A DNA stretch of 64,000 bases from Pacificibacter sp. (GCF_039769035.1 NZ_JBDMZG010000023.1:4429-68428); one strand, 5' to 3'; positions 17,005 through 36,699 are shown, counted from the first letter of the stretch. Made by a program: numbers and translations. The notes: generated by a model not told the origin, from the sequence alone.

Positions 17005-17005
17005 G

Positions 17006-18088: not shown

Positions 18089-18106
18089 CGACCTAGGAGG
18101 TGCAAA

Positions 18107-18146: not shown

Positions 18147-18167
18147 TATTGGATCAAGTGTTGGGTA

Positions 18168-18383: not shown

Positions 18384-18413
18384 ATCTTTACTCTTTCGTT
18401 ATTTCGTTAAGGA

Positions 18414-19298: not shown

Positions 19299-19313
19299 GC
19301 CCGTCTTCCTTTT

Positions 19314-19952: not shown

Positions 19953-19977
19953 TTGGGCACTCCGTTTTGATGGTAAA

Positions 19978-21153
19978 CTATGAATTCAAAAGAGGTAACG
20001 CGGCCTGCAGGTCTGCTTTCAGGCTATCTGTGTCTTCAAGGCCGATGTTAAACCGCACCAAGGCACCGGTCTCAGTCCAAGCTTTCGCGCTGCGCATGGG
20101 GTCAACGGGCAATACAAGGCTCTCGTATCCACCCCAGCTCACGCCGATACCAAAATGATGCAGGGCGTCGACAAAATCGCGGATTTGTGCCGCGCTGCAG
20201 GGGTGAAAAATCACGGAGAACAGACCTGCGGCGCCGGTGAAGTCACGCTTCCAGAAATCGTGGCCGGGGCAACTCTCAAAGGCTGGGTGCAGAACAGTCT
20301 TTACTTGTTTTTGTTGTCCCAGCCATGTCGCGATTTCACGGCCGGCCTTGTCAAAATACTCCATGCGGACCTTAAGCGTTCTAAGCCCGCGCAAGGCGAG
20401 GAAAACTTCGTGTGATCCTGGCTTGTCGCCGATTGCAAAAACGGTCTTACGTATCTGATCATGGTACATGGTATTGCTCGCGATCATGCCCATCATGCAA
20501 TCTGAATGCCCGCTGATGTATTTTGAGCAAGAGGCGACCACGACATCGCAGCCCAGATCAAGGGGTTTGCAAAACAACGGCGTGGCCCAAGTGCTATCGA
20601 TAATCGAGGGGATAGAGGCATCGCGTGCGGCTTTTGCAATGGCCGGAATGTCAGGTATTTCAAAGGTGCCCGACCCTGGGGCTTCGAGCATAATGGCGCA
20701 GGTTGTTTCACGAATTAAATCGTAGATATCTGTGCCGATCATGGGATCGTAGTATTCAATCTCAACGCCCATGCGGCTCAAAACGCCATCACAAAAGGCG
20801 CGCGTGTTGCCGTAGACGTGATCGGCGACCAATAGGTGTTTTCCCGGGGCAACGAATGTCATCAACGCCGTAGAGATGGCCGCCACGCCGGATGATGTTA
20901 AGGTGACACCGCGTGCGTTTTCGAGATTGGCAAGTAGCGCTTCCAGTTGAAATGAGGCGTCATTTCCATACCGCCCATAGTAAAGGGTACCGGATGCGTA
21001 GCGCGCATCGCGTGCGCTCTCAAAACTTGCCATACTGTCAAAGACAATCGTCGAGCCAAGCTCAATAGGCATGTTAACATGACGACCATCGACACGGGGA
21101 GGCCTACCGTTTTGCACGAGAGCATCGGCGTTATTTCTTGTATCTGAAGGCAT
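19978..21153 (-). CDS. PLP-dependent C-S lyase, cystathionine beta-lyase (MetC)-like
   Basis: GSTIVF, YGRYG, DSTWATP, SKYISGHSD (PLP lysine), RGLRTL and GVSWGGYESL. Confidence 0.85.
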   Translation of the reverse strand: MPSDTRNNADALVQNGRPPRVDGRHVNMPIELGSTIVFDSMASFESARDARYASGTLYYGRYGNDASFQLEALLANLENARGVTLTSSGVAAISTALMTFVAPGKHLLVADHVYGNTRAFCDGVLSRMGVEIEYYDPMIGTDIYDLIRETTCAIMLEAPGSGTFEIPDIPAIAKAARDASIPSIIDSTWATPLFCKPLDLGCDVVVASCSKYISGHSDCMMGMIASNTMYHDQIRKTVFAIGDKPGSHEVFLALRGLRTLKVRMEYFDKAGREIATWLGQQKQVKTVLHPAFESCPGHDFWKRDFTGAAGLFSVIFHPCSAAQIRDFVDALHHFGIGVSWGGYESLVLPVDPMRSAKAWTETGALVRFNIGLEDTDSLKADLQAALPLLNS

Positions 21154-21203
21154 GGAATAATCTCGCTTAATATAGACGTTCTGAGGATGACATCCCAGAT
21201 CTA

Positions 21204-21241
21204 CTGTGTCAATATGCAGAAAATATGTTCACTATAGCAGC
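21204..21241 (-). promoter_or_regulatory. Promoter/operator block of the C-S lyase operon (TTGACA -35)
   Basis: Minus strand GCTGCTATAGTGAACATATTTTCTGCATATTGACACAG; 28/38 identical to 24856-24893. Confidence 0.6.
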
Positions 21242-21254
21242 ACGTGAGAGTTGA

Positions 21255-23591
21255 ATGCCTAAGATTGAAACAAAGATTACTGCAAACCACTGGGGCGTTG
21301 GTGTCGCTGTGGTTGAAGATGAAAAAATTCAATCGGTCGCTGGGCATTGCGAGGATCCAAATCCGTCGCGGATCAACGATAATATCGCAAGCAGCTTGCA
21401 TGGCGATGCGCGTATCACGCGTCCAGCCGTGCGCAAATCATGGCTTGAGAACGGTCCCGAAGGGCGCGGTACAAGCGGCGAAACAGCACGCGGTCGCGAT
21501 GGCTTTGTCGAAGTCAGTTGGGATACGGCTCTCGATTTGATTGCCAAAGAACTTAGACGTATTCGTGAGGCGTATGGGAATGGAGCAATTTTTGCCGGTT
21601 CATATGGTTGGTCAAGCGCCGGACGCTTTCATCACGCCCAGAGTCAACTGAAGCGTTTTTTGAACACGCAGGGCGGGTTCGTGCGTTCAGAGGGTAACTA
21701 TAGCTATAATGCGGCCCTTGTCCTGATGCCGCATATCGTTGGGCCGTACCGACAACATGTTGTGGACGCGACCCGCTGGCCGGTCATTGCCAAACACAGC
21801 GATCTTGTTGTGTGTTTTGGTGGCATCGCACAGCGCAATACTCAAGTCAGCGATGGTGGCGTTGCGCGTCATCGGATGAAAGATAACTTGACCCTATGCA
21901 AGGACGCGGGCGTTGAGTTTGTCAACATCAGCCCATTACGCAGCGATATCTTAGAGACACTTGATGCTGTCTGGATGCCACCATTGCCGGGTTCTGACAC
22001 TGCATTGATGTTGGGGCTCGCGCATACCTTGCTAACCGAAGGTCTGCATGATGTTTCGTTTTTGGATAAATACACCGTCGGCTTTGACCGCGTCGCAGCG
22101 TACATTCTGGGCAAAACCGATGGCCAGCCAAAAGACGCCGCTTGGGCTGCGGCACAATCGGGAATCGACGCCGAAGACATTGCGGCCCTCGCTCGAAAAA
22201 TGGCGTCGTCCCGTACGATGATCAGTATTGCCGCGGGGGTACAGAGGGCAGATTATGGCGAACAACCCCTTTGGATGGGAGTGACTTTGGCAGCGATGCT
22301 GGGGCAAATCGGCTTACCTGGTGGCGGATATGTGATTGGGTACGGCGTGAACGCGAACATCGGGAATGTAGAGCGCCCATTTCGGTGGGGCGCCTTTTCA
22401 CAACTCAAGAACCCGCACGATGACTTTATCCCAGTCGCGATGATTTCCGAGATGTTACTAAGTCCCGGGAAAAGCTATGATTACAACGGGCGTAAACGGA
22501 AATTCCCCCATGCGCGTATGGTCTGGTGGGCCGGAGGAAACCCTTTTCATCATCACCAAGACCTGAATAGGTTACACGAGGCGTTCCAGGCCCCCGACAC
22601 CGTGATTGTGAATGAGCTGAATTGGACCGCAACCGCGCGTCATGCGGATATCGTTTTGCCGATTGCGTCTGCGCAAGAACGTACAGACTTTGGCGCAGGG
22701 AAATCAGACAATGCCCTTGTTCCGATGCCTGCATTAATCAAGCCGGTGGGCGAGGCGCGGATGGAATATGACATCTATGCAGACCTCGCAGGGCGTCTTG
22801 GAAATGCCGAGGCGTTTACGGAGGGGCGCAGCAGTGAAGACTGGTTGCGGTGCATTTGGCAACAAACGCAATCTACGGCTTCGAAGGCCGGTATTGATCT
22901 GCCGAACTGGGATGAATTTATCTCTGGGGACGTTGTGCATGTGCCAGATCCAGCGCCTGAGCAAGTATTTCTGGACAAATTTCGTGCCGATCCGGTGGCA
23001 AATCCCTTGTCGACCCCAAGCGGCCGCATCCAGCTATTCTCGCAAACCATTGCGTCGTTTGGTCGCCCTGACTGCCCAGGCCATGCGGCGTGGTTCGCGC
23101 CACGGGATGTGGCAGCCGGAGCGGAACAAAAATACCCACTGTATATGTTGTCGGGGCAACCAAAAACGCGGTTGCACAGCCAGCTTGATAATGGCGACTA
23201 TAGTAAAAGCCATAAGATCAAGGATCGCGAGCCGGTGCTGCTTCATCCAAGAGATGCGGCTGAGCGTGGGATTGAGCATGGAGATATCGTTGAGCTCTAC
23301 AATGATCGCGGGCGTTGTCTTGCTGGTGCAAAAATAACCGATGAAGTCCGCGAGGGCTGTGTCTTTTTGTGGACGGGAGCTTGGTATGATCCCGATTTCA
23401 ATGCGCCGCAAAACCGTGATCGACATGGAAATCCGAATGTTTTAACCCATGATCTTCGCACATCGTCCCTTAGTCAAAGCACGGCGGCACATTCAACCTT
23501 GTTGAATGTACGTAAGTTTGAAGGTGTATTGCCAAAAATCACGGCTCATTCAGCTCCTGACTTCCTGTTTCGGAATGAACCTGATACTTGA
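21255..23591 (+). CDS. Cytoplasmic bis-MGD molybdoenzyme, BisC/DMSO-reductase clade (S-oxide reductase-like)
   Basis: NHWG start with no Tat peptide or FeS cysteines; GSYGWSSAG, NYSYNAA (Ser ligand), WAGGNPFHHHQD, RLHSQL and GNPNVLT. Confidence 0.88.
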   Translation: MPKIETKITANHWGVGVAVVEDEKIQSVAGHCEDPNPSRINDNIASSLHGDARITRPAVRKSWLENGPEGRGTSGETARGRDGFVEVSWDTALDLIAKELRRIREAYGNGAIFAGSYGWSSAGRFHHAQSQLKRFLNTQGGFVRSEGNYSYNAALVLMPHIVGPYRQHVVDATRWPVIAKHSDLVVCFGGIAQRNTQVSDGGVARHRMKDNLTLCKDAGVEFVNISPLRSDILETLDAVWMPPLPGSDTALMLGLAHTLLTEGLHDVSFLDKYTVGFDRVAAYILGKTDGQPKDAAWAAAQSGIDAEDIAALARKMASSRTMISIAAGVQRADYGEQPLWMGVTLAAMLGQIGLPGGGYVIGYGVNANIGNVERPFRWGAFSQLKNPHDDFIPVAMISEMLLSPGKSYDYNGRKRKFPHARMVWWAGGNPFHHHQDLNRLHEAFQAPDTVIVNELNWTATARHADIVLPIASAQERTDFGAGKSDNALVPMPALIKPVGEARMEYDIYADLAGRLGNAEAFTEGRSSEDWLRCIWQQTQSTASKAGIDLPNWDEFISGDVVHVPDPAPEQVFLDKFRADPVANPLSTPSGRIQLFSQTIASFGRPDCPGHAAWFAPRDVAAGAEQKYPLYMLSGQPKTRLHSQLDNGDYSKSHKIKDREPVLLHPRDAAERGIEHGDIVELYNDRGRCLAGAKITDEVREGCVFLWTGAWYDPDFNAPQNRDRHGNPNVLTHDLRTSSLSQSTAAHSTLLNVRKFEGVLPKITAHSAPDFLFRNEPDT

Positions 23592-23612
23592 TACGTATCG
23601 GAGGATGAACCA

Positions 23613-24383
23613 ATGACAGATACGCCGCCTAAGACGCCCAAAGTTGACTCTACCCTCTCCAAGGGATTGAGCATTCTTGAAAACTTGGCACATGCCCCAT
23701 CAGGCAAGGGCGTTACCGAGTTATCGGTGGAGTTGGGTCTTACGAAATCTAACACATTTCGCCTTTTGCAGAGTCTCACAACACTTGGATATGTCAAACA
23801 CTTGGAAAGCAAAGCTTATGCCGCGACGTTGAAGACGTGGCAAATTGGACGAGCTTCGGTTGATAATTTGAACCTGCGCGAACTGGCCGCGCCTGAGATG
23901 TCATTCCTGTCCAAGGAAACCGGCGAGACGATTTATCTGGCCGTTCCTGAACATCTTGGGATCGTCTATATAGATAAGATTGAGAGCCAAAAACCCATCC
24001 GGTCTTGGAGCCCGATTGGCGGCGAAGCGCCGATTCATTGCGTGGGTACCGGGAAGGCCATCTTGGCGGCGAATTATGGTAGCATGCGCGAACGCATTAA
24101 GGGGCAACTGACCCGACATACGGAAAAGACAATATCCTCTATTGCGGCCCTTGATGATGATATAAATGCGACGCTTGCCCGAGGATATGCCGTAGACCAA
24201 GGCGAATTTCGCGAGCGCATTTGGAGTCTTGGGGCAGCGATTACGCTTCCCAGTGGAGAAAGCATAGCGTCGTTGGGGATTTCGTTGCCAGATGTGAGTA
24301 TGCCCGAAAACGGGTTAGATAGATATGGATCTTTGGTTGCCAATTGCGCCGAAAGCGTATCTGCGAAACTGGCGCGCCGCTAA
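23613..24383 (+). CDS. IclR-family regulator
   Basis: TLSKGLSILE..GVTELS..LTKSNTFRLL; PIHCVGTGKAILA; RGYAVDQGE. Confidence 0.92.
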   Translation: MTDTPPKTPKVDSTLSKGLSILENLAHAPSGKGVTELSVELGLTKSNTFRLLQSLTTLGYVKHLESKAYAATLKTWQIGRASVDNLNLRELAAPEMSFLSKETGETIYLAVPEHLGIVYIDKIESQKPIRSWSPIGGEAPIHCVGTGKAILAANYGSMRERIKGQLTRHTEKTISSIAALDDDINATLARGYAVDQGEFRERIWSLGAAITLPSGESIASLGISLPDVSMPENGLDRYGSLVANCAESVSAKLARR

Positions 24384-24441
24384 ATTTCACTTGATCTAAC
24401 TGTTTCGCGCCTTCTTTGTAGAGTGCGCGAAACAGAGTTTT

Positions 24442-24843
24442 TTAGCCCTTCTTTTCAGGAAATTCGACTGAACCGCCTTGTTTTTCCCAAGTGGAGAAAC
24501 CTTCTTTGAGGTGAGCCGCTTCAAACCCCATGTCTTGGAGCGTGGCAACTGTTAGCGACGAGCGCCAACCTGAGGCGCAATGGAAGACAAACTTTTTATC
24601 TTCTCCAAAGATGTCCTTGAAATATGGGCTGTCTGGATCGACCCAGAATTCGATCATGCCACGCGGCGCGTGAAAGCTGCCAGGAATAAAACCTGTGCGC
24701 TGGCGTTCACGTGGGTCGCGAATGTCAACCACGACAACATTTGGATTTTCGAGCATCGCGATGAGGTCGGCGGTTTCGACTTCCTCAATGCGCGCTCTTG
24801 CGGCTTTCACCATGTCAGATGATGACAATTTGAGCTTTTTCAT
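24442..24843 (-). CDS. Single-domain rhodanese (sulfurtransferase)
   Basis: VVDIRDPRE, HAPRGMIEFWVDP and active-site FHCASGWRS. Confidence 0.88.
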   Translation of the reverse strand: MKKLKLSSSDMVKAARARIEEVETADLIAMLENPNVVVVDIRDPRERQRTGFIPGSFHAPRGMIEFWVDPDSPYFKDIFGEDKKFVFHCASGWRSSLTVATLQDMGFEAAHLKEGFSTWEKQGGSVEFPEKKG

Positions 24844-24855
24844 AAAGACCTCTGT

Positions 24856-24893
24856 GCTGATATATAGAACTTATATATCATATATTGACACAG
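24856..24893 (+). promoter_or_regulatory. Promoter/operator block of the FAD-oxidase operon
   Basis: TGATATATA-GAACT-TATATATCA palindrome (24858-24880) abutting TTGACA (24885-24890). Confidence 0.65.
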
Positions 24894-24954
24894 AGGAGAA
24901 GCTGTTGCAACCTTTCCTCAATCGCAGCCATTCCGTTTGAGGTAGGGAATCTAT

Positions 24955-26229
24955 ATGAGTGCACAAAATGCAATTTCGCTTTGGAACGCCACGGCGATTG
25001 AAGAAGATTTTCATGCGCCGCTCGATACGCAAGGTATCTTGGATGTCGTGATTATCGGCGGTGGGTTCACCGGGTTATCATCAGCGCTTCATTGCGCCGA
25101 GCAGGGACTGTCGGCGCATGTGCTTGAGGCGAATCAAATCGGTTTCGGTGGGTCAGGACGCAACTGTGGGCTGGTAAATGCCGCGCTTTGGTTGCCACCC
25201 CAAAAAGTGCGTGAGAAATTGGGACCGGTATATGGTCCGCGTTTCATCGATATGTTCGGTCAAGGCCCAGGGTATGTGTTTTCTCTAATTGAAAAGCACC
25301 AAATCCGCTGTGAAGTGACCAAAACTGGGACAATTCATGGTGCGCATGCCCCTTCAGGTTTTCGCGACCTACAGGACCGCCACAAAGAGTGGCAGCGCCT
25401 GGGTCAGCCAGTGGATCTGCTATCGCGTGAGGAGGTATCCGAGAAATTGGGCACGACTGTGTTCCATGGTGGCCTTTTGGATCACCGCGCCGGCACGATA
25501 AACCCAATGGGCTATGTGCGAGGACTTGCACGTGCGGCGCTCGGAGCCGGTGCGAAAATAAGCACCAAGGTCCGCGCGACCAAATTATCCAAAGAAGGTG
25601 ATCTGTGGATCGTTGAAACGGATAAGGGCACAGTGAAAGCTAAGGCGGTTGTTCTGGGAACCAACGCTTACACGGATGACCTATGGCCAGGCTTGAAGCA
25701 GAACTTTACGTTGATCAATTACTTTCAACTCGCCACCAAGCCGCTGGGGCCAGAGGCCGCGCATATTATGCCCGAAAAACAGGGTTTGTGGGATACCGGT
25801 CAGATCATGTTTAATGTGCGCCGCGATGCATACGATCGCCTGCTGATTGGATCTATGGGTAAGGTCATGGGTGATATTAATGGCGGCGTTTCACAGCGTT
25901 GGGCGCGCAAACAAATCGCGCGTTTGTTCCCAACACTTGGCCCCGTCGAGTTCGAAGAGGCGTGGACAGGGCAAATTGCAATGACACCAGATCATCTGCC
26001 CCGCATTCATGAGCTTGATAAAAATCTATTCACGCCAATTGGTTACAATGGTCGTGGTATCACAACCGGTACGATGTTTGGGCGCACGATGTCGCAATTA
26101 TTGACCGGCATGGATCGTGCAGATCTGCCGCTACCTATGACGGACCCATCGACAGTGAAATCTGCTCCTGTCTTTTCGCGCTTGTACCAAACGGCGTTCA
26201 CAGCAAAACAAATCTTGAAAGCAATTTGA
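24955..26229 (+). CDS. FAD-dependent oxidoreductase, DAO/PuuB-like
   Basis: IIGGGFTGLSSAL, GFGGSGRNCGLV, INPMGYVRGLA and GYNGRGITTG. Confidence 0.88.
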   Translation: MSAQNAISLWNATAIEEDFHAPLDTQGILDVVIIGGGFTGLSSALHCAEQGLSAHVLEANQIGFGGSGRNCGLVNAALWLPPQKVREKLGPVYGPRFIDMFGQGPGYVFSLIEKHQIRCEVTKTGTIHGAHAPSGFRDLQDRHKEWQRLGQPVDLLSREEVSEKLGTTVFHGGLLDHRAGTINPMGYVRGLARAALGAGAKISTKVRATKLSKEGDLWIVETDKGTVKAKAVVLGTNAYTDDLWPGLKQNFTLINYFQLATKPLGPEAAHIMPEKQGLWDTGQIMFNVRRDAYDRLLIGSMGKVMGDINGGVSQRWARKQIARLFPTLGPVEFEEAWTGQIAMTPDHLPRIHELDKNLFTPIGYNGRGITTGTMFGRTMSQLLTGMDRADLPLPMTDPSTVKSAPVFSRLYQTAFTAKQILKAI

Positions 26230-26231
26230 CT

Positions 26232-28319
26232 ATGACACTGGCTTCTACACGCGTCGGCGTGGATATCGGCGGCACCTTTACGGATGTTGCATTGCAACAT
26301 GCGGGCGGGCTTTCGACGTGCAAAGTTCTGACCAACTACACTCAACCTGAACAGGCGATTTTGGATGGAATTGCCTTGGCTTCCAAACAGGCTGGGATCG
26401 AATTGTCTGATATTGATCAAGTGATCCACGGCACCACTTTGGTGACGAACTCTTTGATTGAGCGTCGCGGAGCAAAGCTGGCGTTTATCACGACCGAAGG
26501 TTTTCGCGACGTCATCGAAATGCGTTCTGAAAATCGGTTTGAGCAGTATGACCTGAACCTTAACCTGCCAAAGCCGATGGTGCCTCGTCAGGATCGTTTC
26601 ACATTGAATGAACGGATCGGCGCAAGTGGCGCGGTCCTGTTGCCGCTTGAGCAAGACGACGTGGACGCAATGGTACAAACCATTCTGGCCGGCGACTTTG
26701 AAGCCGTCGCGATTGGGTTGATGCACTCCTATGCCAATGATGCGCACGAACGTCAGATGGCGGATGCATTGCGTGCGGCGGCCCCTGATTTGTCGATTTC
26801 GATCTCATCTGTGATTTCGCCACAAATGCGCGAACTGCCACGGTTTAATACAGTGATCGCAAACGCATATGTACAACCACAGGTCGCGGATTATCTTGGA
26901 CGTTTGGTCGCCCGCCTTCGTGGCGCCGGCGTCGCGGCCCCAGTCTTTATGTTACATTCTGGGGGTGGTTTGATTTCGGTAGAAACAGCCGCAGAACAGC
27001 CTGTCCGTCTGCTTGAATCTGGTCCCGCAGGGGGCGCAATTTTTGCCGCCGATTTTGCGCGGGCGCATGATCTCGACAAAGTCTTGAGCTTTGATATGGG
27101 GGGCACCACTGCCAAGATTTGCTTGATCGAAGATGGTGCGCCCAAGACGGCGAATACCTTCGAAGTCGCGCGTACATATCGTTTCAAAAAAGGCTCGGGC
27201 ATGACCGTGTCCACACCCGTTGTTGAAATGGTCGAGATCGGCGCGGGAGGCGGTTCAATTGCGTCCATCGACAGCATGAACCGAATCCAAGTTGGACCTC
27301 GATCCGCGGCCTCAGAGCCAGGCCCGGCGTGCTATGGCCGAGGCGGAGAAGAGCCAACTGTGACGGATGCGAACCTGCTTTTGGGTCGCCTTGATCCAAA
27401 CAATTTCGCGGGAGGTGCGATCCAACTGCACCCTGACGCATCGGACACTGCCGTGGCTGCGAAACTTGGCGAAACTTTGAGTATTACAAGCAGCGACGCC
27501 GCCTTTGGTGTTACCGAAATGGTTGACGAAAACATGGCCAATGCGGCGCGTGTTCACACGGTTGAAAATGGCCGTGATATTGAACATTTTACCATGATCG
27601 GTTTCGGAGGTGGGGCACCGCTTCATGCCTGTCGTCTCTGTGAAAAACTCGGCATACGTGATTTGATCATTCCGCCAGGTGCGGGTGTTGGTTCTGCGAT
27701 TGGCTTCCTGAAGGCCCCCTTCAGTTATGAAGCTACGCGCGGATTGTTTCAGCAACTCGCTGATTTCAATGGCGCTGCAGTGAACTCAGCTTTGGCTGAG
27801 CTGGAGCAAGAGGCCCGCGCTTTTGTTGAAGCAGGGGCCAAGGACGCGGATACCTCATCTAAACTGACTGCGTTTATGCGATATGCGGGGCAGGGTTGGG
27901 AAATCCCAGTGTCCCTACCGTACAAACCGTTTGCGGACTCGGATAAATCAGAGATCCAAGATGCGTTTGAAGCCGCATATGAAATGTTGTTTGGCCGGAC
28001 CATCGATGGGCTTGCGATTGAAATCACCAACTGGTCGCTTGTGGTTGCATCCGTGCTGCCTGATGTTGCAAAGGCCGCGCATTTCGCATCGGGAGATGCA
28101 GCAACAGAGCGACGGACACGTCAATTCTATGACGCTGCACTGCGAAGCACCGTGGATGCGCGCGAAGTAGAGCGTAGCGAAATGAGCGCTGGGAAATCTG
28201 TCGAAGGCCCCGCCGTGATTATCGAAAATGAGACCACCACAATTGTCACATCCGCCTATACGGCGATTGGCCAAGGCGACGGCAGCTTGCTGCTGCGCCG
28301 CAAGGGAGACGCACTATGA
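26232..28319 (+). CDS. Hydantoinase A / 5-oxoprolinase ATP-binding subunit
   Basis: GVDIGGTFTD, HGTTLVTN, ESGPAGG, DMGGTTAK, IGAGGGSI and GPACYGRGG. Confidence 0.92.
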   Translation: MTLASTRVGVDIGGTFTDVALQHAGGLSTCKVLTNYTQPEQAILDGIALASKQAGIELSDIDQVIHGTTLVTNSLIERRGAKLAFITTEGFRDVIEMRSENRFEQYDLNLNLPKPMVPRQDRFTLNERIGASGAVLLPLEQDDVDAMVQTILAGDFEAVAIGLMHSYANDAHERQMADALRAAAPDLSISISSVISPQMRELPRFNTVIANAYVQPQVADYLGRLVARLRGAGVAAPVFMLHSGGGLISVETAAEQPVRLLESGPAGGAIFAADFARAHDLDKVLSFDMGGTTAKICLIEDGAPKTANTFEVARTYRFKKGSGMTVSTPVVEMVEIGAGGGSIASIDSMNRIQVGPRSAASEPGPACYGRGGEEPTVTDANLLLGRLDPNNFAGGAIQLHPDASDTAVAAKLGETLSITSSDAAFGVTEMVDENMANAARVHTVENGRDIEHFTMIGFGGGAPLHACRLCEKLGIRDLIIPPGAGVGSAIGFLKAPFSYEATRGLFQQLADFNGAAVNSALAELEQEARAFVEAGAKDADTSSKLTAFMRYAGQGWEIPVSLPYKPFADSDKSEIQDAFEAAYEMLFGRTIDGLAIEITNWSLVVASVLPDVAKAAHFASGDAATERRTRQFYDAALRSTVDAREVERSEMSAGKSVEGPAVIIENETTTIVTSAYTAIGQGDGSLLLRRKGDAL

Positions 28320-29962
28320 GCCCGACAGCAATCGATTATCAAATCATGTGGAACCGCTTGATTGCGGTTGTCGAAGAACAAGCCACGACATTGATCCGAA
28401 CCGCTTTTTCAACCTCAGTGCGCGAAGCGGGCGATTTGTCGGCAGGGCTTTTTGATCGCCAAGGCCGAATGATGGCGCAGGCGGTCACCGGCACGCCAGG
28501 TCACGTGAACGCAATGGCCGAGAGCGTGACGCATTTTGTACGTGAGCTGGGACTGGATAACGTATTTGAAAACGACGTTTTCATCACCAACGACCCATGG
28601 CTTGGCACGGGGCACCTTCACGACATTACGGTTGTGTCGCCAACGTTTCGCAACGGCCAACACATCGGTTTCTTTGCCTGTACTGCGCATGTTGTGGATA
28701 TTGGTGGTCGGGGTTTTGGGCCTGACGCGAACGAAGTGTATGAAGAGGGTCTCTTGATCCCGATCATGAAGTTCGCCGAACGGGGAAACGTGTCCAAGGA
28801 TCTTATCCGTATGGTGCGCTCTAACGTGCGTGAACCGGATCAAGTGGTCGGCGATCTTTATTCTCTAGCGGCCTGTAACGAGGCAGGGGATCGCCGCTTA
28901 CAGACCATGATGGGCGAATTTGGCATCTCTGATCTGGAGGGTCTGTCGGATTTCGTGATTGAGACATCGCGCAAAGCCACCCATGAGGCCATCGCCAAAG
29001 TTCCCGATGGCACGTTTCGTCATTCTATGCAGGTGGATGGGTATGATGCACCGGTCAATATGGTTGTGCGTTTGGATGTCGCTGGGGATAAAATCAAAGC
29101 CGATTTTGATGGTACCTCAGGCATGAGCCGCTTTGGCGTAAACGTTCCCGAGGTCTACACACGTGCCTATGCGTGCTATGGCTTGAAATGCGCGATTGCG
29201 GCAGAGGTGCCGAATAACACGGGTTCACTTGAACCCTTTGAAATTACCGCTCCTGAGGGATGCATCTTGGCCGCGCGTCGACCTGCTCCGGTTTCGGTGC
29301 GCCATGTCTTGGGACATTTGGTGCCTGATGTGGTGCTGGGCGCTTTGCACCAAGCGATGCCCGACACAGTTCCCGCCGAGGGGGCAAGCGCACTTTGGAA
29401 TATCCAAATTTCGGCACGCGCCAGTGATCCCGCAAGCGGTTTGCCGAATGCCGAGGTCCTGATGTTCAACTCTGGCGGGACAGGGGCCCGCCCAACATTG
29501 GACGGATTGTCTGCGACGGCCTTCCCATCTGGTGTGTCGACGATGAGCGTCGAAGCGACCGAGCACGTTGGCCCGATCACAGTGTGGCGAAAAGATCTTC
29601 GTGAGGGATCAGGCGGGGCGGGGGCCTTTCGGGGCGGCCTTGGTCAGAACATCGAAATCGAACCCCGCGAAGGCTATGACTTTTACTTTAACGCCATGTT
29701 CGATCGGGTGGAAAATCCCGCGCGCGGTCGCGAAGGTGGCCATGCGGGTGCCAAGGGACAGGTCGAACTTTCAGATGGCACCAAGATGAGAAGCAAGGGG
29801 CGCCAGTTGGTCAAAAATGGCCAACGTCTCAAACTCAGCCTCCCAGGAGGGGGCGGATATGGCGCGCCAAGCGCGCGCGACAAAACGGAAGTGGCCCAAG
29901 ATCTGGCCGCTGGATTCATCACAGAAGAGCAAGCGACCGGCGTTTACGGTCTGAAAAAGTAG
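28316..29962 (+). CDS. Hydantoinase B / 5-oxoprolinase catalytic subunit
   Basis: RTAFSTSVREAGDLS, NDPWLGTGHLHD, HVVDIGG, EEGL, SGGAGAFRGG and PGGGGYG; ATGA-coupled to subunit A. Confidence 0.92.
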   Translation: MSPTAIDYQIMWNRLIAVVEEQATTLIRTAFSTSVREAGDLSAGLFDRQGRMMAQAVTGTPGHVNAMAESVTHFVRELGLDNVFENDVFITNDPWLGTGHLHDITVVSPTFRNGQHIGFFACTAHVVDIGGRGFGPDANEVYEEGLLIPIMKFAERGNVSKDLIRMVRSNVREPDQVVGDLYSLAACNEAGDRRLQTMMGEFGISDLEGLSDFVIETSRKATHEAIAKVPDGTFRHSMQVDGYDAPVNMVVRLDVAGDKIKADFDGTSGMSRFGVNVPEVYTRAYACYGLKCAIAAEVPNNTGSLEPFEITAPEGCILAARRPAPVSVRHVLGHLVPDVVLGALHQAMPDTVPAEGASALWNIQISARASDPASGLPNAEVLMFNSGGTGARPTLDGLSATAFPSGVSTMSVEATEHVGPITVWRKDLREGSGGAGAFRGGLGQNIEIEPREGYDFYFNAMFDRVENPARGREGGHAGAKGQVELSDGTKMRSKGRQLVKNGQRLKLSLPGGGGYGAPSARDKTEVAQDLAAGFITEEQATGVYGLKK

Positions 29963-29970
29963 GACATGAC

Positions 29971-30723
29971 ATGAGCAAACAACCAATCGCATTGGTCACG
30001 GGCGCCGCCCAAGGGATCGGCTATGCCTGTGCAGAAGCCATCGCAGAAGATGGTGCAAAGGTGATTTTGGCAGATATCAACGCCGAAGGTGTCGCGGCAG
30101 CGGCCGATAAACTTGGTGGTGGTGCCGTTGGCATGGCCTGTGACATGGGGGATCCTGCGCAGATCGAAGCCATGTTCGACGCAATCGAAGCAGAGCATGG
30201 CCCTGTTGAAATTCTTGTGAACAACGCGGGCATCGCGATGCCGGGAGATTTTCTTGAAACGTCGCTCGAGAGCTTTCAAAAGGTGATCGACGTTAATCTC
30301 ACTGGGACGTTCCTTGCACTTCAACGTGCTGCAAAAACCATGGCCGCCAATAACATTGAGGGCGCGATTGTGAATATGTCGTCCATCAATGCGGTCGTCG
30401 CAATCCCGTCAATCCCTGCGTATTGTGCCTCAAAGGGCGGTGTGATGCAGTTGACCAAGGCGACGGCGCTGGCATTGGCTCCGCACAATATTCGGGTGAA
30501 TGCTGTTGGACCTGGTTCGATCGATACCGAAATGATGGCCGGCGTGAATGCAAACCCAGAAGCCATGAAAATGGTTATGTCGCGTACGCCTCTGAAACGT
30601 GTCGGCGAGCCACGTGATATTGGCGATGCCGTCGCATTTCTCGCGAGCAAAAAAGCCAAATATATCACTGGCGAAACCATCTATGTGGATGGTGGGCGCA
30701 TTGGTATGAACTACACGTGCTGA
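29971..30723 (+). CDS. Short-chain dehydrogenase/reductase
   Basis: TGAAQGIG, NNAG, SSINA and YCASK. Confidence 0.92.
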   Translation: MSKQPIALVTGAAQGIGYACAEAIAEDGAKVILADINAEGVAAAADKLGGGAVGMACDMGDPAQIEAMFDAIEAEHGPVEILVNNAGIAMPGDFLETSLESFQKVIDVNLTGTFLALQRAAKTMAANNIEGAIVNMSSINAVVAIPSIPAYCASKGGVMQLTKATALALAPHNIRVNAVGPGSIDTEMMAGVNANPEAMKMVMSRTPLKRVGEPRDIGDAVAFLASKKAKYITGETIYVDGGRIGMNYTC

Positions 30724-30728
30724 GGTAA

Positions 30729-32648
30729 ATGATGTCGAAATACCCACAAACCTATGCCGATTGGCAGGCGGATCCCGCGGCCTTTTGGGCCAATGCCGCT
30801 AAAGCAATTGATTGGTTCACCCCGCCGACGTCCACGTTCAATGCCGACAAAGGCGCCTATGGGCGTTGGTTTGATGGGGCGACATGCAATACCTGTTACA
30901 ACTGCGTTGATCGCCATGTCGAAGCCGGCCACGGCGACCGCGCGGCTGTTATTTATGATAGCCCTGTTACGGGAACCGCGAAAACCTATTCCTATGCCCA
31001 AACCAAGGACGAGGTCAGCGCGTTGGCGTCTGTTCTGCGTGGGCTAGGCGTCACCAAAGGTGATCGTGTTATTATATACATGCCAATGGTGCCTGAGGCG
31101 ATCTTTGCGATGCTGGCCTGTGCGCGCCTTGGTGCGATCCATTCGGTTGTATTCGGTGGTTTTGCTGCGCGCGAATTGGCAACCCGAATTGACGATGCTG
31201 CTCCAAAAGCGATCATTTCGGCGTCCTGTGGGATCGAGACAAATCGGGTGATCGCCTATAAGCCGTTATTGGATGAAGCGATTGAAATCGCATCGGCCAA
31301 GCCTGATCACTGTGTGATCTTGCAACGCGATACCCAGTCATGTGAGCTGATCGAAGGGCGCGATGTTGATTACGCGCAATCGGTTCAATCTGCCATTGCG
31401 GCTGGCGAGGGTACAGAATGTGTGCCGGTCGAGGCGACTGATCCGCTTTATATCCTTTATACATCGGGTACGACGGGCCAGCCCAAAGGCGTTGTTCGCG
31501 ACAATGGCGGGCATATGGTCGCGCTGCGTTGGTCGATGGAGTATCACTATGATATCAAACCGGGAGAAACCTTCTGGGCCGCCTCTGATGTGGGTTGGGT
31601 CGTTGGCCATTCCTATATCTGCTACGGACCATTGCTGAATGGCAGTGCAACGGTTGTCTTTGAGGGCAAACCCGTTGGCACACCGGATGCTGGGGCGTTC
31701 TGGCGCGTGATCCAAGACCACAAAGTCGCGGCGATGTTCACCGCACCGACCGCGCTTCGCGCGATCAAAAAGGTTGATCCCTCGGGGCTGCTTATTCAGG
31801 ATTACGATCTAAGCAACTTCAGGACCTTGTTCTTGGCGGGTGAACGATCTGATCCGGCGACGATTGAATGGGCGCAGGAGAAACTCGACCGTCTTGTTAT
31901 CGACCATTGGTGGCAAACCGAAACCGGATGGGCCATGTCTGGCAACCCTGTGGGGCTGGGGGCATTTCCGATCAAGCTTGGTTCACCTGGGAAACCAATG
32001 CCTGGTTACGATATCCGTGTGCTGGATGACGAGGGTAACCCTGTAGAAGCTGGTACGTTGGGGAATATCGTCTGCAAGCTACCGTTGCCCCCTTCGGGAT
32101 TTCCTACATTGTGGAATGCTGAAGAGCGTTTCCGATCCTCCTATATGGAGGAGTTCCCTGGGTATTATGCGACATCTGACGCTGGTATGATCGACGAAGA
32201 CGGATATGTTTTTATCATGGCGCGCACAGATGACATCATCAATGTCGCAGGGCACCGGTTGTCCACCGGCGCGATGGAGGAAGTTATCTCGGGGCATGAA
32301 GACATCGCCGAATGCGCAGTGGTGGGTGCAGCCGATGCGCTTAAGGGACAGATGCCGCTCGGATTTTTTGTTGTGAACGATGGTGTGGATCGCGACCCTG
32401 CTGACTTGGAAAAAGAACTGGTTCAGTTGGTCCGTGCCAAGATTGGCGCAGTTGCGGCGTTTAAATTGGCTGTGCCGGTAAAACGTTTGCCCAAAACGCG
32501 ATCAGGCAAAGTGTTGCGTGGGACGATGCAAAAAATCGCAAACGGCGAGACTTACAAGATACCCGCAGCGATTGATGACACAATGATTTTAACCGAAATC
32601 CACGAGGCGCTTGGCGCACGAAACTTGATTGGAAAACCCAATGATTGA
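30729..32648 (+). CDS. prpE: Propionyl-CoA synthetase-like acyl-CoA ligase
   Basis: [32 protein letters not shown] and LPKTRSGK. Confidence 0.82.
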
Positions 32649-32985
32649 ACGCATTCACACATCTGAACGCATGAGCAAAATCGTCAAACACAACGGTGTC
32701 GCCTACCTTTGTGGTCAAGTCGGCGCGGGTGACAGCGTCGCCGAGCAAACCGCTGACTGTCTGGCGCGTGTAGATGCGCTTCTTGCGGAGGCAGGCTCAG
32801 ACCGCGAACACATTCTTCAGGCTGTAATTTGGGTGTCTGACATGGCTCATTTCGCTGAAATGAACGCGGTTTGGGATGCTTGGGTGCCTGCCGGCCATGC
32901 GCCTGCCCGCGCCTGCGGCGAAGCCAAGCTTGCCCGCGATGTGTTGAAGGTAGAAATCATCGTTACCGCCGCCGTTAAATCGTAA
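32641..32985 (+). CDS. RidA (YjgF/Rid) family imine/enamine deaminase
   Basis: [31 protein letters not shown] and VEIIVTAA. Confidence 0.88.
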
Positions 32986-33000
32986 ACAAAAGGATCGCCT

Positions 33001-33738
33001 ATGACTTATGCAGTAGAAATGAAAGATGTGAACAAGTTTTACGGAACGTTTCATGCCTTGAAGGGCATTAATCTTTCGGTGAAAAAGGGTGAGAAAATCG
33101 TGGTTTGCGGGCCGTCTGGTTCAGGTAAGTCAACGATGATCCGCACGATCAACCAGCTCGAAGAGCATCAATCCGGCGAGATATTGATCAACGGTGACCC
33201 GATCAACGCCGATGCGCCAAATATCGAAGAAATGCGTCGTGAGGTGGGGATGTGTTTCCAGCATTTTAATCTCTTCCCGCATCTGTCCATTTTGGAAAAC
33301 TGCACGCTTGCACCGATGCTTGCGCGTAAAGAAACCCAAGCAGATGCAGAGGCGACCGCGATGGCATTCTTGGAAAAAGTTCAAATCGCCAACCAAGCCG
33401 ACAAATTTCCAGGTCAACTGTCTGGCGGTCAACAACAGCGTGTTGCGATCGCGCGGGCACTTTGCATGAAGCCGGAAATTTTGCTCTTTGATGAACCGAC
33501 TTCGGCGCTTGATCCCGAGATGATTGGTGAGGTTTTGGATGTCATGGAAACATTGGCCCAAGAAGGCATGACGATGGTCTGCGTGACGCATGAAATGGGT
33601 TTTGCGCGCAAGGTTGCTGACCGTGTTATCTTTATGGATGCCGGGGAAATCATCGAAGAAAGCGATCCGGAAACTTTCTTCACCTCGCCAGCCAATGAGC
33701 GGACACGGAACTTCTTAGATCAAGTTCTCACTCACTAA
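33001..33738 (+). CDS. Amino-acid ABC ATP-binding protein (AapP/BztD-like)
   Basis: [45 protein letters not shown] and THEMGFA. Confidence 0.93.
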
Positions 33739-33779: not shown

Positions 33780-35516
33780 GTGATGATACACAACTACGTT
33801 CCGATATTGTCGTGGGGCCGGCGTTATTCGAAAAAGATAATGCTGGAGGATCTGCTTGCTGCTGTGATCGTCACGGTCATGCTTATCCCGCAATCTTTGG
33901 CCTATGCATTGCTTGCTGGCCTGCCTCCCCAGGCAGGCCTATATGCGTCCATAGCGCCGATCATCCTCTATGCGATCTTTGGGACAAGCAGCGCACTTGC
34001 CGTTGGTCCTGTTGCTGTTGTCTCCCTGATGACCGCCGCAACGCTCAGCCAGATCGCTGAACAAGATACAATGGGATACGCGATTGCAGCGCTTTCTCTG
34101 GCGGGATTGTCCGGGCTTATCTTGCTTGTGATGGGCATGCTTCGCCTTGGATTTGTCGCGAATTTTCTTTCTCATCCGGTGATGTCCGGGTTTGTCTCGG
34201 CATCAGGGATTATTATTGCCGCAAGCCAAATTCAACATATCCTCGGCATCGACGCGTCTGGCCAAAGCCTGTGGCAGTTAATGCAGTCATTGAGTAAAAA
34301 CATTTCGCAAACAAACATCTATACGGCCGTGATTGGCGTTGGTGCTACTGCATTTTTGTTCTGGATGCGGCTTGGGTTGAAGCCACTTTTGAGTAGGCTA
34401 GGGGTAGGGGCACCCTTGGCTGGGGTCGTCGTCAAGATTGGACCTATTTTCGTTGTCGTTCTCACAACCCTCGCTGTATGGCTCGCGGGACTGATGAACA
34501 AAGGTGTCCGAATTGTCGGGGAGGTACCTCAGAGTTTGCCTCCATTGACGTTCCCGTCTTTGTCCACAGAGTTATTAGATGCATTGGTGATGCCAGCGGT
34601 CTTAATCTCGATCATTGGTTTCGTGGAATCTATTGCTGTGGCCCAAACTCTAGCGGCTAAAAAACGCGAGCGAATTGACCCAGACCAGGAGTTGATTGGA
34701 TTGGGCGCTGCGAATATCGGTGCATCTCTCACGGGTGGTTTCCCGGTGACCGGCGGTTTCTCTCGGTCGGTGGTGAATTTTGATGCGGGGGCTGCAACAC
34801 CTGCGGCGGGGGCCTTTACGGCGATCGGGTTGGCCTGTGCCGCGCTTTTCTTGACCCCACTGATCTATTTCCTACCTAAGGCAACACTGGCGGCCACGAT
34901 CATTGTCGCTGTGGCGAATTTGGTTGATTTCAGTATTCTACGCCGGAGCTGGTCGTATTCAAAACCGGATTTTGCGGCCGTGTTCGTGACACTCATTCTG
35001 ACCTTGGGGTTCGGCGTTGAGGCCGGTGTCTCAGTCGGAGTAGGGGTGTCAATTTTGCTCCATTTATACCGGACATCAAAGCCCCATATTGCCGAAGTTG
35101 GTCTTATTGAAGGAACGGAACATTTTCGTAATGTGCTGCGACATGACGTTCAGACGGATCCGAGCGTGGTCAGCCTGCGTGTCGATGAAAGCCTTTATTT
35201 CGCCAATGCGCACTACCTAGAAGAGGCGATCTACAATAGGGTTATGGGGGATGCAGCGGTACGTCATGTGATCTTGCAATGCTCAGCGGTGAACGACATT
35301 GATCTCAGCGCGCTTGAGGCACTGGAGACGATTAACAAGGTACTAAATGAGATGGATGTGAAACTTCATCTTTCAGAAGTGAAAGGTCCAGTTATGGATC
35401 ATCTTGGATCGGAGCAATTCTTAAGCGACCTCACAGGCTTTGTTTTTCTCTCTCAATTTGAAGCCGTAAAAGCGGTAGGTCGACATTCAAAAGATGAAAC
35501 TTTGCCCACTCGTTAA
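33780..35516 (+). CDS. SulP-family anion permease with STAS domain
   Basis: IPQSLAYA, GLY, GPVAVVSL, GGFSRS and RVDESLYFANA. Confidence 0.92.
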   Translation: MMIHNYVPILSWGRRYSKKIMLEDLLAAVIVTVMLIPQSLAYALLAGLPPQAGLYASIAPIILYAIFGTSSALAVGPVAVVSLMTAATLSQIAEQDTMGYAIAALSLAGLSGLILLVMGMLRLGFVANFLSHPVMSGFVSASGIIIAASQIQHILGIDASGQSLWQLMQSLSKNISQTNIYTAVIGVGATAFLFWMRLGLKPLLSRLGVGAPLAGVVVKIGPIFVVVLTTLAVWLAGLMNKGVRIVGEVPQSLPPLTFPSLSTELLDALVMPAVLISIIGFVESIAVAQTLAAKKRERIDPDQELIGLGAANIGASLTGGFPVTGGFSRSVVNFDAGAATPAAGAFTAIGLACAALFLTPLIYFLPKATLAATIIVAVANLVDFSILRRSWSYSKPDFAAVFVTLILTLGFGVEAGVSVGVGVSILLHLYRTSKPHIAEVGLIEGTEHFRNVLRHDVQTDPSVVSLRVDESLYFANAHYLEEAIYNRVMGDAAVRHVILQCSAVNDIDLSALEALETINKVLNEMDVKLHLSEVKGPVMDHLGSEQFLSDLTGFVFLSQFEAVKAVGRHSKDETLPTR

Positions 35517-35569: not shown

Positions 35570-36470
35570 CTAAAGCGTGCATTTCAATCGAGGAAATTTA
35601 CGGCGGTTGCGCCTTCCCGCAAACACTTGAACCGACAACCCGCCCTTAAAACGGCGGGTGTTGTTGTTTTGGGGGTCTGTGAGATCTAAGATTGCAGCCA
35701 ATTCCCCAAAGAGTTCAATCATATGACCATCATCAGCTGCTTCATCCGGATGCAGGCGCACCTTTGGAACAAGGCTACGAAGTAGCTCTGAGGCTTCAGA
35801 TCTGTTCGTCTCGTCATTGAGGCTGTCCGACAAGGCGGTGATCTTCTTGCTGTAGGTCTCTGCGAGGGCAGGGTGTAGCACAATTGGATCTTGTTCGGGC
35901 AGGGCTGCGAGCTTTGCTGTTAACTCGGTTTTGCGCGCCTCTAGGGCATCCATTTTTGTCTTCATAGAGGCGTGGAACATGCCCGCTGTGATGGCGTAAA
36001 CGATCTTCTGGATCTGCACGCCGAGCTGTTTGAGCTCACGTTCAATGGAGCTTCGCGCTGATGTGCTCTCGCTGTGCAGTCGGTTCCATTCCCTTTGATA
36101 TTCCGTGACGAACTCCTTGAGCAGCTCTGGATGCATCAGCTTGGATTTGAGGCCACTCAGAATACGCTCTTCAACACTCTCGCGTTTGATGAGCTTGCGG
36201 TTGTCGCAAGTGCCTTTATTGAGAGCGGAAGCGCAGCCGTATTTGGTCTTGTTCATCAGGGTATAGGAGCCACCGTAGTGGCCACACTTAAGAAGACCTG
36301 AAAACAGGTGTTTGGTACGTTTTGCTCGAGCGAGTGGATTGCTATCGTTGGTCTGCTGGGCTTCGCTCAATGTTGATCTGATCACGCCTTGGCGCCGCTT
36401 GATCCGTTGCCACATATCAGCTTCGATCAGGCGAAGGTCTGGTACTGCGTTTTTCAAGTGGCCGCCTCCC
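35570..36470 (-). pseudogene. Large serine recombinase, C-terminal remnant (Zn-ribbon and coiled coil; catalytic domain lost)
   Basis: VPDLRLIEADMW, HLFSGLLKCGHYG (CxxC degraded), YGC..KGTCDN, LHPALAETY and IELFGELAAIL; the upstream sequence is not recombinase-like. Confidence 0.8.
35601..35625 (+). repeat. att-like 25-bp repeat, copy 1
   Basis: CGGCGGTTGCGCCTTCCCGCAAACA; 23/25 identical to 63136-63160; lies inside the recombinase 3' end. Confidence 0.7.
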
Positions 36471-36699
36471 AGTCCTGTCCAACGTCGCTGCGCAATGTCA
36501 ATTATGTTGTTAGGTTTCGACAATGGGCCAAACATGAAGACTTAAACTTTTGTGGCACAGTTTGTACGCTAAATGGGTCAGCCGCAGCCCGCTCTCAATC
36601 AAAAAATCTATGGACGCGATTTCCAAAGAATCGCCGCATTCTGTGCGGTTTGCTGAACGCACGTCGTCCATTTGCGTCAACAGCTCTTGCTGCTCGTGA

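Follow-up and report, generated by a model that had tools for sequence, protein, structure and literature searches.

A conserved island of 16 genes, which would serve the catabolism of a cyclic sulfur imino acid if the reading favoured here is right, was found in a 64,000-nucleotide stretch of DNA from Pacificibacter sp. (GCF_039769035.1 NZ_JBDMZG010000023.1:4429-68428; this whole stretch is called the window below). At its center lies an operon (24955-32985) for an L-pipecolate-oxidase-like FAD oxidase, the two subunits of an ATP-dependent lactamase (HyuA and HyuB, together HyuAB), a short-chain dehydrogenase/reductase (SDR), a short-acyl-coenzyme A (CoA) ligase (PrpE paralogue) and a RidA-family protein; around it are genes for an ATP-binding cassette (ABC) importer, an S-oxide reductase, a C-S lyase and further sulfur enzymes. 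The island is proposed, at a probability of roughly 40%, to degrade a cyclic imino acid that resembles pipecolate but has a sulfur atom in place of one ring carbon. Whether chondrine or thiomorpholine-3-carboxylate is specifically the substrate is doubtful. The proposal is based on gene families, residue motifs, gene order in related genomes and a box shared by the promoter regions of the island.

Gene organization and conservation

The six ORFs (open reading frames) of the operon, all on the plus strand (Table 1), were assigned by Pfam and NCBIfam, in order, to a DAO/AmaA-like oxidase, Hydantoinase_A with N and C domains, Hydantoinase_B, a classical SDR, a PrpE/Acs-type AMP-ligase and Ribonuc_L-PSP. 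The junctions are -4 for oxidase/HyuA (TTGA; +2 with the ATG at 26232 as the start of HyuA), -4 for HyuA/HyuB (an ATGA overlap), +8 nt for HyuB/SDR and +5 nt for SDR/PrpE; PrpE and RidA overlap by 20 nt (8 nt if RidA starts at the ATG at 32641), and the gap from RidA to the following ABC ATPase gene is +15 nt. The original prediction, which was made from the window sequence alone and described a single operon with near-zero gaps, is thus confirmed, with junctions from -20 to +15 nt and all of the families it named (oxidase, HyuAB, SDR, PrpE and RidA) recovered. The transcription unit probably extends past RidA through the ABC ATPase gene (33001-33738) and a SulP gene (33780-35516), which lie on the same strand.

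For comparison, one genome per species was scanned; 345 stretches encoded a HyuB relative, and the best 80 (79-100% identical) were used for the analysis of loci. Gene counts refer to 64 loci with a full upstream flank, to 61 loci for the SDR, ATPase and SulP genes, and to 55 loci with both flanks. In most related loci, the order found by tblastn was (SBP-permease-permease) (persulfide dioxygenase) VOC-lyase / BisC-IclR / rhodanese / oxidase-HyuA-HyuB-SDR-PrpE-RidA-ATPase, SBP being the periplasmic solute-binding protein of the importer. The BisC gene, the lyase gene, the importer genes and the operon were syntenic in ~50 other species-level genomes, and all ten tested genes were present in 27 of the 55 loci in which both flanks were complete. 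Dozens of other genomes show this order, with proteins 60-93% identical in amino-acid sequence, and a chance arrangement of the operon is therefore excluded. As the unit to be explained, the operon is real and its gene order recurs elsewhere, but it makes up only about a third of what is conserved, namely 16 genes and ~21 kb (about 14715-33738, reaching 35516 in the Pacificibacter lineage). A short form, reduced to IclR-rhodanese-oxidase-HyuAB-SDR, was found in five of the 55 loci with both flanks complete; comparison of the flanks of these short-form loci yielded no gene in common. De novo ORF clustering of the related loci gave no further conserved gene.

The ORFs around the SBP and permease genes (14773-18088) include no ATPase gene, and the ATPase encoded at the opposite end of the island, directly after RidA, is the predicted missing fourth component of this importer. 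The importer genes are thus split over both ends of the island, which therefore forms one unit over its whole length.

Shared promoter box

The longest inverted repeat found between 12 and 36 kb pairs the lyase/BisC divergent region (21204-21243) with the rhodanese/oxidase divergent region (24854-24893) over 40 nt with 75% complementarity. The box GTGCTGAYATAYAGMAC has matches at 24854, 21227, 14736 and 14715, and one more, probably due to chance, at 48015; the chance expectation is 0.55 matches, for a pattern that was itself derived from two of the matched sites. In two genomes with oxidases that are only 68-74% identical (G295 and G152), all matches to GTGCTGAYATAYAGMAC within 20 kb fall in promoter regions of the island, i.e., upstream of the SBP gene, between lyase and BisC and between rhodanese and oxidase, the lyase/BisC region being without a match in one of the two. 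Both divergent regions bear the same inverted motif beside a -35-like element, TATTGACAC, in most of the 40 genomes checked. A promoter-like site (24857-24886) and a terminator-like site (35638-35659) were also recorded, in scans that were not above chance. Since the importer genes, the sulfur genes and the operon share the box in their promoter regions, they appear to answer to one regulator. The local IclR-family protein is presumably the factor that acts at this predicted operator-like box.

Core enzymes

By far the best model for the oxidase was that of the L-pipecolate oxidase AmaA (NF050086), which it matched with 447 bits, below the cut-off of 600. Alphaproteobacterial homologues that are 42-46% identical to it score 420-455 bits on the same model, like the window oxidase, and directly adjoin a true AmaB (808-820 bits, above the cut-off) or a Pyr2C/Pip2C reductase. 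AmaB is the piperideine-6-carboxylate (P6C) dehydrogenase; no gene for it was found in the island or in the genome, which is 98.7% complete (best match 255 bits vs. a cut-off of 730). The genome has no second AmaA-like gene, and no linked orthologous HyuAB was found beside oxidase homologues at 41-48% identity. Because the relatives of the oxidase sit by AmaB or Pip2C reductase and this genome lacks AmaB, the SDR and HyuAB are predicted to stand in for the canonical P6C dehydrogenase beside a pipecolate-oxidase-type enzyme. In genome G084, an AmaA-like oxidase that is 41% identical to that of the window lies ~4 kb from a RidA-like gene and from distant HyuB and HyuA genes (29-34% identical; L142:9866-18200), which may be another, independent oxidase-lactamase association.

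HyuA carries the phosphate motifs DIGGTFTD at residue 13 and DMGGT at residue 290. The ASKHA ATP site of HyuA has been defined by DxGGTxxD, DxGGT and an adenosine motif, GxxPGP (PMC8453981); a regular-expression search restricted to the exact form did not find GxxPGP in the HyuA of the window. Residues D40/H100/D103/H125 of HyuB align with the CapB tetrad D41/H99/D102/H124. HyuA and HyuB, the latter a short B subunit of 548 amino acids, are the only subunits encoded, with no third small subunit in any related locus, and HyuAB is accordingly classed by prediction as the two-subunit hydrolase type that lacks a carboxylase gamma subunit. The SDR shows TGAAQGIG at residue 10, NNAG at 84 and YCASK at 151, and is probably NAD+-dependent, judging from the Asp in LADIN after strand beta-2. 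The RidA-family protein carries the PAR arginine motif; its 54 bits on TIGR00004 vs. a cut-off of 106 set it apart from an archetypal RidA.

Reactions of the kind proposed here have been described for sulfur-free rings. 6-Hydroxy-pipecolate is oxidized to 6-oxo-pipecolate, a stable lactam from which 5-oxoprolinase can produce aminoadipate by ring opening (PMC11670438), and variants of the 5-oxoprolinase OPLAH are associated with 6-oxopiperidine-2-carboxylate (PMC9671801). For azepane, a scheme has been proposed that leads from the cyclic amine through a hydroxy-amine and caprolactam to ring opening (PMC9477822).

Sulfur enzymes and CoA ligase

The lyase lies above the MetC equivalog cut-off, scores 279-284 bits to structures of MetC and of cysteine-S-conjugate lyases (E. 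coli MetC among them) and is encoded by the only MetC-like gene in the genome. The BisC-type protein scores 620-634 bits to structures of dimethyl sulfoxide and trimethylamine N-oxide reductases; its N-terminus has no RR motif and no twin-arginine leader, and it carries NYS at residue 148 and GSYGW at residue 115, the latter kept in 46 of 47 orthologues. It is predicted to reside in the cytoplasm; its Ser ligand of molybdenum and its Tyr/Trp motifs are those usual for S-oxide reductases, which suits a ring sulfoxide.

The PrpE paralogue is below the equivalog cut-offs (727 vs. 955 bits on NF007815, 692 vs. 827 bits on TIGR02316). A second PrpE gene, on contig C57, is 64% identical to it and is presumably the housekeeping copy. 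Alignment with E. coli PrpE and Acs gave the acyl pocket V/V/A/W for the operon PrpE, the C57 paralogue and all 13 orthologues examined; the pocket positions are V310/T311/V386/W414 in Acs, corresponding to V/V/A/W in PrpE. A V/V/A/W pocket would be propionate-sized and admit an acyl chain of three heavy atoms, so that thioglycolate, which is isosteric with propionate, would fit.

The rhodanese loop CASGWR is of the Cys-X4-Arg form and identical in every orthologue in which the motif was found. For the VOC-superfamily protein, a structural model with a pLDDT (predicted local distance difference test) value of 70 gave methylmalonyl-CoA epimerases as the best matches of known function, with weak TM-scores (0.36-0.5); searches with Atlas and Foldseek gave answers at the level of the fold only.

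Proposed pathway

The MetC-type beta C-S lyase is the only island enzyme that acts on an alpha-amino acid, and the product of ring opening should therefore carry its sulfur on the beta-carbon. The ring would then be a thiazolidine-, thiomorpholine- or thiazepane-carboxylate. Within this set, thiomorpholine-3-carboxylate and chondrine would explain most of the genes, because thioglycolate fits the PrpE pocket, 3-mercaptopropionate is too long for it, and a five-membered ring gives no acid. A seven-membered thiazepane ring, with 3-mercaptopropionate as the product, is disfavoured, the PrpE pocket having kept its Trp gate.

In the route so proposed, the compound would be imported by the Aap/Bzt-type ABC system and its ring sulfoxide reduced by the cytoplasmic BisC-type enzyme. 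The AmaA-type oxidase would dehydrogenate the N-CH2 bond distal to the carboxylate, and the NAD-type SDR would turn the resulting cyclic carbinolamine into the lactam 5-oxothiomorpholine-3-carboxylate. HyuAB would spend ATP to open this lactam to S-carboxymethyl-cysteine, in which the alpha-amino group is free. Beta-elimination by the MetC-type lyase would release the thiol, the RidA-family protein clearing aminoacrylate to pyruvate and ammonia, and the PrpE paralogue would convert thioglycolate, a thiol acid of propionate size, into its thioester. The VOC protein, the persulfide dioxygenase and the rhodanese, joined in this lineage by SulP, would dispose of the sulfur in steps that cannot yet be written.

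The order of reduction, oxidation, lactam formation, ATP-dependent opening, lyase and PrpE was already part of the original prediction. It has gained comparative support from the genomic context of the oxidase, the synteny, the shared box, the PrpE pocket and the chemical precedent, but it leaves the rhodanese, the VOC protein and the dioxygenase unexplained. A cycloalliin-type substrate, also suggested at that stage, is as conjectural as chondrine, and its ring could form no lactam, the carbon beside the nitrogen being substituted.

Several observations weigh against the cyclic thia-imino acid. The scheme gives no role to the rhodanese, although 59 of 64 loci carry it as part of the invariant core, and it finds no place for the VOC protein or the persulfide dioxygenase either, since sulfane sulfur does not arise from a thioether ring. 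Loci of the short form, which lack lyase, BisC and PrpE, would stop at S-carboxymethyl-cysteine, and they match a route from thiazolidine-4-carboxylate to cysteine, or plain pipecolate, better. The lactam route would cost ATP where an aldehyde dehydrogenase would do. The pocket of the operon PrpE is identical to that of the housekeeping PrpE, and propionate or acrylate would be equally allowed. Chondrine is known from macroalgae, whereas the island is also found in pelagic metagenome-assembled genomes (MAGs) and seawater metagenomes. Finally, the matches to the AmaA, PrpE, BisC and RidA models are all below the curated cut-offs. A wider picture, comprising widespread marine mineralization of chondrine, the first pipecolate-type oxidation routed through a lactam by design, and a thioglycolate-CoA desulfurization branch made up of PrpE, VOC protein, dioxygenase and rhodanese, is unlikely.

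Comparison with known systems

The closest described system for the oxidase is the AmaA/AmaB L-pipecolate pathway (Pseudomonas putida; alphaproteobacterial versions at loci L137 and L140), the oxidases being of the same family (447 vs. 450-455 bits). The window oxidase presumably attacks the N-CH2 bond of a cyclic imino acid with a six-membered ring. The island differs from that pathway in having an SDR and an ATP-dependent lactamase, and sulfur enzymes in place of lysine-pathway enzymes.

HyuAB resembles 5-oxoprolinase (OPLAH), the caprolactamase CapAB (PDB 6yra) and N-methylhydantoinase (PDB 7hk5) in its two subunits, the HyuA phosphate motifs and, in HyuB, a metal tetrad of Asp-His-Asp-His. 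However, it scores only 140-204 bits to the solved HyuA/HyuB members, and on the CapA and CapB models the island proteins reach 455 and 198 bits vs. cut-offs of 1000. The logic of oxidase, dehydrogenase and ATP-dependent oxoprolinase is shared with a human side route in ALDH7A1 deficiency, which leads from P6C through 6-hydroxy-pipecolate and 6-oxo-pipecolate to aminoadipate (PMC11670438, PMC9671801). That is an overflow route in which the dehydrogenase has not been identified, whereas the island encodes the three activities in one operon, apparently as a main route.

A plasmid-borne cluster of rhizobia (e.g., R. leguminosarum pRL1, R. jaguaris pRCCGE525a) has a HyuB that is 66-67% identical and likewise combines an oxidase-dehydrogenase-lactamase triad with an enzyme whose substrate is a free alpha-amino acid. 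Its SoxB-like oxidase and Azf-like extended SDR are non-orthologous to those of the window, it has no sulfur genes, and its importer is of the Liv type. Because this cluster recruited the same triad independently, followed by an enzyme for a free alpha-amino group, it supports a general sequence from cyclic imino acid through lactam to open-chain amino acid. The two rhizobial operons (L156:9888-18590 and L157:9884-18586) read HyuA-HyuB-aspartate-type aminotransferase-Azf-like NAD(P) oxidoreductase-SoxB-like FAD oxidoreductase-thiamine pyrophosphate enzyme; in the former locus, the Liv-type ABC importer and a FadR regulator adjoin the operon. The rhizobial operon probably degrades a sulfur-free cyclic imino acid via a lactam. 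In all, 206 plasmid records match HyuB, most commonly from Rhizobium, Sinorhizobium and Shinella.

On the sulfur side, the BisC protein resembles the BisC/DorA reductases in its predicted cytoplasmic location, Ser ligand and Tyr/Trp motif, and the lyase resembles cystathionine beta-lyase MetC, whose equivalog cut-off it exceeds. Unlike the known BisC and MetC systems, the island pair is divergently arranged, co-conserved with a lactamase operon and without a biosynthetic or repair context. All enzymes thus belong to known families and no described pathway combines them; the island is best regarded as a variant of the pipecolate pathway that takes a detour through a lactam and is fused to a module for cysteine S-conjugates and sulfoxides.

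No publication in the library searched describes the island. The literature search gave nothing relevant on roseobacter hydantoinases, on the bacterial catabolism of chondrine or thiomorpholine-carboxylate, or on lyases for S-carboxymethyl-cysteine/thioglycolate. In the databases, close homologues of the oxidase bear generic names only, and in the plasmid copy of Paracoccus seriniphilus, the sole annotated copy inspected, the genes mostly have family-level names or are called 'hypothetical protein'.

Alternative explanations

An alternative that survives comparatively well, if still rather improbable, divides the island into two modules under one regulator. The core would take a sulfur-free imino acid (L-pipecolate, via 6-oxo-pipecolate, to 2-aminoadipate), and BisC, lyase, VOC protein and dioxygenase would process sulfoxide amino acids of linear structure, such as methionine sulfoxide or S-alkyl-cysteine sulfoxides, derived from the same algal source. 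The score on the AmaA model cannot separate the window oxidase from true alphaproteobacterial pipecolate oxidases, the route through 6-oxo-pipecolate is documented, and short-form loci keep the core without sulfur genes other than the rhodanese. Moreover, BisC-type enzymes are known to reduce free methionine sulfoxide. The rhodanese, however, is itself a sulfur enzyme and stays in the core even in the short forms; a single box is common to both divergent promoters and to that of the importer; no aminoadipate aminotransferase or other downstream gene of the lysine pathway was found in or near the island; and the lyase is of the beta type (MetC) rather than a methionine gamma-lyase.

A further alternative applies the oxidase-SDR-HyuAB chemistry to a five-membered ring. 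Thiazolidine-4-carboxylate (thioproline, the adduct of cysteine and formaldehyde) would be oxidized at C2 and then dehydrogenated to 2-oxothiazolidine-4-carboxylate, from which HyuAB would yield cysteine and CO2; the lyase would then serve as a cysteine desulfhydrase, and dioxygenase and rhodanese would detoxify sulfide. The conversion of 2-oxothiazolidine-4-carboxylate to cysteine is a known reaction of 5-oxoprolinase, the short-form core would be a complete route of cysteine salvage, and rhodanese and persulfide dioxygenase would gain an obvious role in sulfide handling. This substrate is nevertheless improbable: PrpE paralogue, VOC protein and sulfoxide reductase would be left functionless though present in most full loci, and the nearest relatives of the oxidase occur in contexts of six-membered rings (pipecolate).

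A lactam could also be the starting compound rather than an intermediate. The lactam of an N-substituted (opine-like) sulfur amino acid would be imported and opened by HyuAB, after which the FAD oxidase would cleave the secondary amine, RidA hydrolyze the imine, SDR and PrpE process the short carbon unit, and BisC and lyase take over the sulfur amino acid. In this way RidA, SDR and PrpE would all be given roles, and AmaA-type oxidases are known to cleave secondary amines in general. The catabolism of agropinic acid encoded on the Agrobacterium Ti plasmid proceeds in this order, the FAD oxidoreductase AgaE acting after AgaFG, a lactamase similar to HyuAB; a literature search for this precedent gave only other lactams and hydantoinases. 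We know of no such sulfur-containing lactam from the sea, and the relatives of the oxidase sit in pipecolate, not opine, contexts, which makes this explanation a poor candidate too.

Very improbable is a neighbourhood without joint function, in which unrelated catabolic and sulfur-detoxification genes have hitch-hiked on a mobile island. The distribution is patchy, the HyuB proteins of sampled relatives are at most 60% identical and without the gene neighbourhood, one copy of the island and many related HyuB genes are on plasmids, and a recombinase-like ORF lies beside the island. Nevertheless, order and content are kept across several families whose proteins are only 60-90% identical, the importer is split over both ends and an operator-like box is shared, none of which is expected without selection for joint function.

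Other candidates were rejected or set aside. Against a gamma-glutamyl-amine (Puu-type) pathway, identity between the oxidase and E. coli PuuB, which itself scores 213 bits on the AmaA model, is only 32%, and the oxidase is much closer to AmaA; the island also lacks a glutamine-synthetase-like ligase and an amidase. Readings based on biotin sulfoxide, glutathione/5-oxoproline, methionine sulfoxide, an ergothioneine thiohydantoin or ectoine each leave most genes unexplained.

Further features of the island

The features of the island and its borders are listed in Table 1. The MocR/EhuR-like regulator, which is close to EhuR, a regulator of ectoine genes, adjoins the cluster here and in one further locus (L058); in G295 and G152, none was found upstream of the gene for the SBP. 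At the other border, SulP is predicted from its narrow occurrence to be a lineage-specific addition. A second persulfide dioxygenase gene (68% identical) and a second SulP gene (64% identical) lie ~1 kb apart on another contig (C23:21322-24954), and the SulP gene of the window may have been copied from such a general sulfide/sulfite module. Just beyond SulP, an ORF of 321 amino acids on the minus strand (35570-36535), whose sole Pfam match is a recombinase zinc-ribbon domain, may be a remnant at the edge of an acquired segment. A neighbouring hut/ergothionase island was not co-conserved with the 16-gene island.

Table 1. Features of the island and its borders, with positions in the window. Counts are loci with the gene among the related loci compared; PLP, pyridoxal phosphate; aa, amino acids.
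Feature	Position	Strand	Evidence and occurrence
MocR/EhuR-like PLP-domain regulator	12730-14214	+	NF052286, 402 bits vs. cut-off 480; membership uncertain
Two operator-like boxes 5' of SBP gene	14715-14752		Box 14736-14752 with half-sites GTGCTG / CAGCAC and 5-base spacer
SBP of Aap/Bzt-type polar amino-acid ABC importer	14773-15810	+	SBP_bac_3, TIGR01096; best PDB match 4z9n, 275 bits; syntenic in L079, L148 and L150
ABC permease 1	15856-17004	+	NCBIfam amino-acid permease matches; syntenic
ABC permease 2	17006-18088	+	NCBIfam; copies of 70-83% identity at left edge of many related loci
Persulfide dioxygenase (ETHE1/Blh-type), accessory	18414-19298	-	NF040641, 355 bits over dioxygenase half; HVHADH motif; 23/64 loci
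VOC-superfamily protein (Glyoxalase_3, PF13468)	19314-19952	-	Pfam, 117 bits; 44/64 loci
MetC-type PLP C-S beta-lyase	19978-21153	-	TIGR01324, 412 bits vs. cut-off 366; 41/64 loci
Promoter/operator block, lyase-BisC divergent region	21204-21243		Inverted repeat partner 24854-24893; box at 21227-21243
BisC/DorA-type molybdenum S-oxide reductase, predicted cytoplasmic	21255-23591	+	TIGR00509, 919 bits vs. cut-off 1018; 49/64 loci
IclR-family regulator	23613-24383	+	Pfam HTH_IclR and IclR_C; 57/64 loci
Single-domain rhodanese	24442-24843	-	PF00581; loop CASGWR; 59/64 loci
Promoter/operator block, rhodanese-oxidase divergent region	24854-24893		Box at 24854; conserved in G295 and G152
AmaA-type (L-pipecolate-oxidase-like) FAD oxidase	24955-26229	+	NF050086, 447 bits
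HyuA, ATP-binding lactamase subunit	26226-28319	+	Hydantoinase_A/N/C; 697 aa
HyuB, metal-binding hydrolytic subunit	28316-29962	+	Hydantoinase_B, 484 bits; 548 aa
Classical SDR	29971-30723	+	TGAAQGIG, NNAG, YCASK; 57/61 loci
PrpE paralogue, short-acyl-CoA ligase	30729-32648	+	NF007815, 727 bits vs. cut-off 955
RidA-family imine/enamine deaminase	32629-32985	+	PF01042, 85 bits; TIGR00004, 54 bits vs. cut-off 106
ABC ATPase, GlnQ/EhuA-type	33001-33738	+	41/61 loci, always after RidA or PrpE
SulP-family anion transporter	33780-35516	+	TIGR00815, 437 bits; only 2/61 related loci

Distribution

Carriers of the island include dozens of genera of the Roseobacter group as well as Roseibium, Hoeflea and one Tepidamorphaceae MAG. 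The window is 100% identical to an assembly of an uncultured Halocynthiibacter; its sequence was itself found in seawater metagenomes, with no RNA run listed, and pelagic MAGs, Planktomarina among them, contain the island as well. Named cultured carriers are Marinovum algicola FF3, Tateyamaria omphalii KCTC 12333, Antarctobacter jejuensis KCTC 42009, Hoeflea poritis E7-10 and Paracoccus seriniphilus DSM 14827. The distribution is patchy, since among 60 relatives sampled, of which 32 belong to the same genus, HyuAB was at most 60% identical and showed no synteny with island genes.

Marinovum algicola FF3 has the full island twice, on separate contigs (L054 and L077), and the copy of Paracoccus seriniphilus is borne on plasmid p449297 (L158). 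In the latter, a gene for a hypotaurine/taurine-pyruvate aminotransferase (Tpa) is located directly downstream of the VOC gene, at the place of the persulfide dioxygenase gene (L158:7748-9127); Tpa was unlinked to the cluster in all other loci checked.

Biological significance

Bacteria of the Roseobacter group are central to the turnover of organic sulfur in the sea. If the proposed pathway is true, cyclic thia-imino acids and their sulfoxides would be a new class of organosulfur substrates feeding the carbon, nitrogen and sulfur metabolism of bacteria. It would also provide a physiological role for many orphan HyuAB pairs that are encoded beside an amine oxidase and a dehydrogenase, and it would be a case in which an ATP-driven route through a lactam bypasses the classical imine/aldehyde-dehydrogenase step. 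Should the proposed substrate be wrong, the 16-gene regulon, the operator box and the cultured carriers still make the question directly testable.

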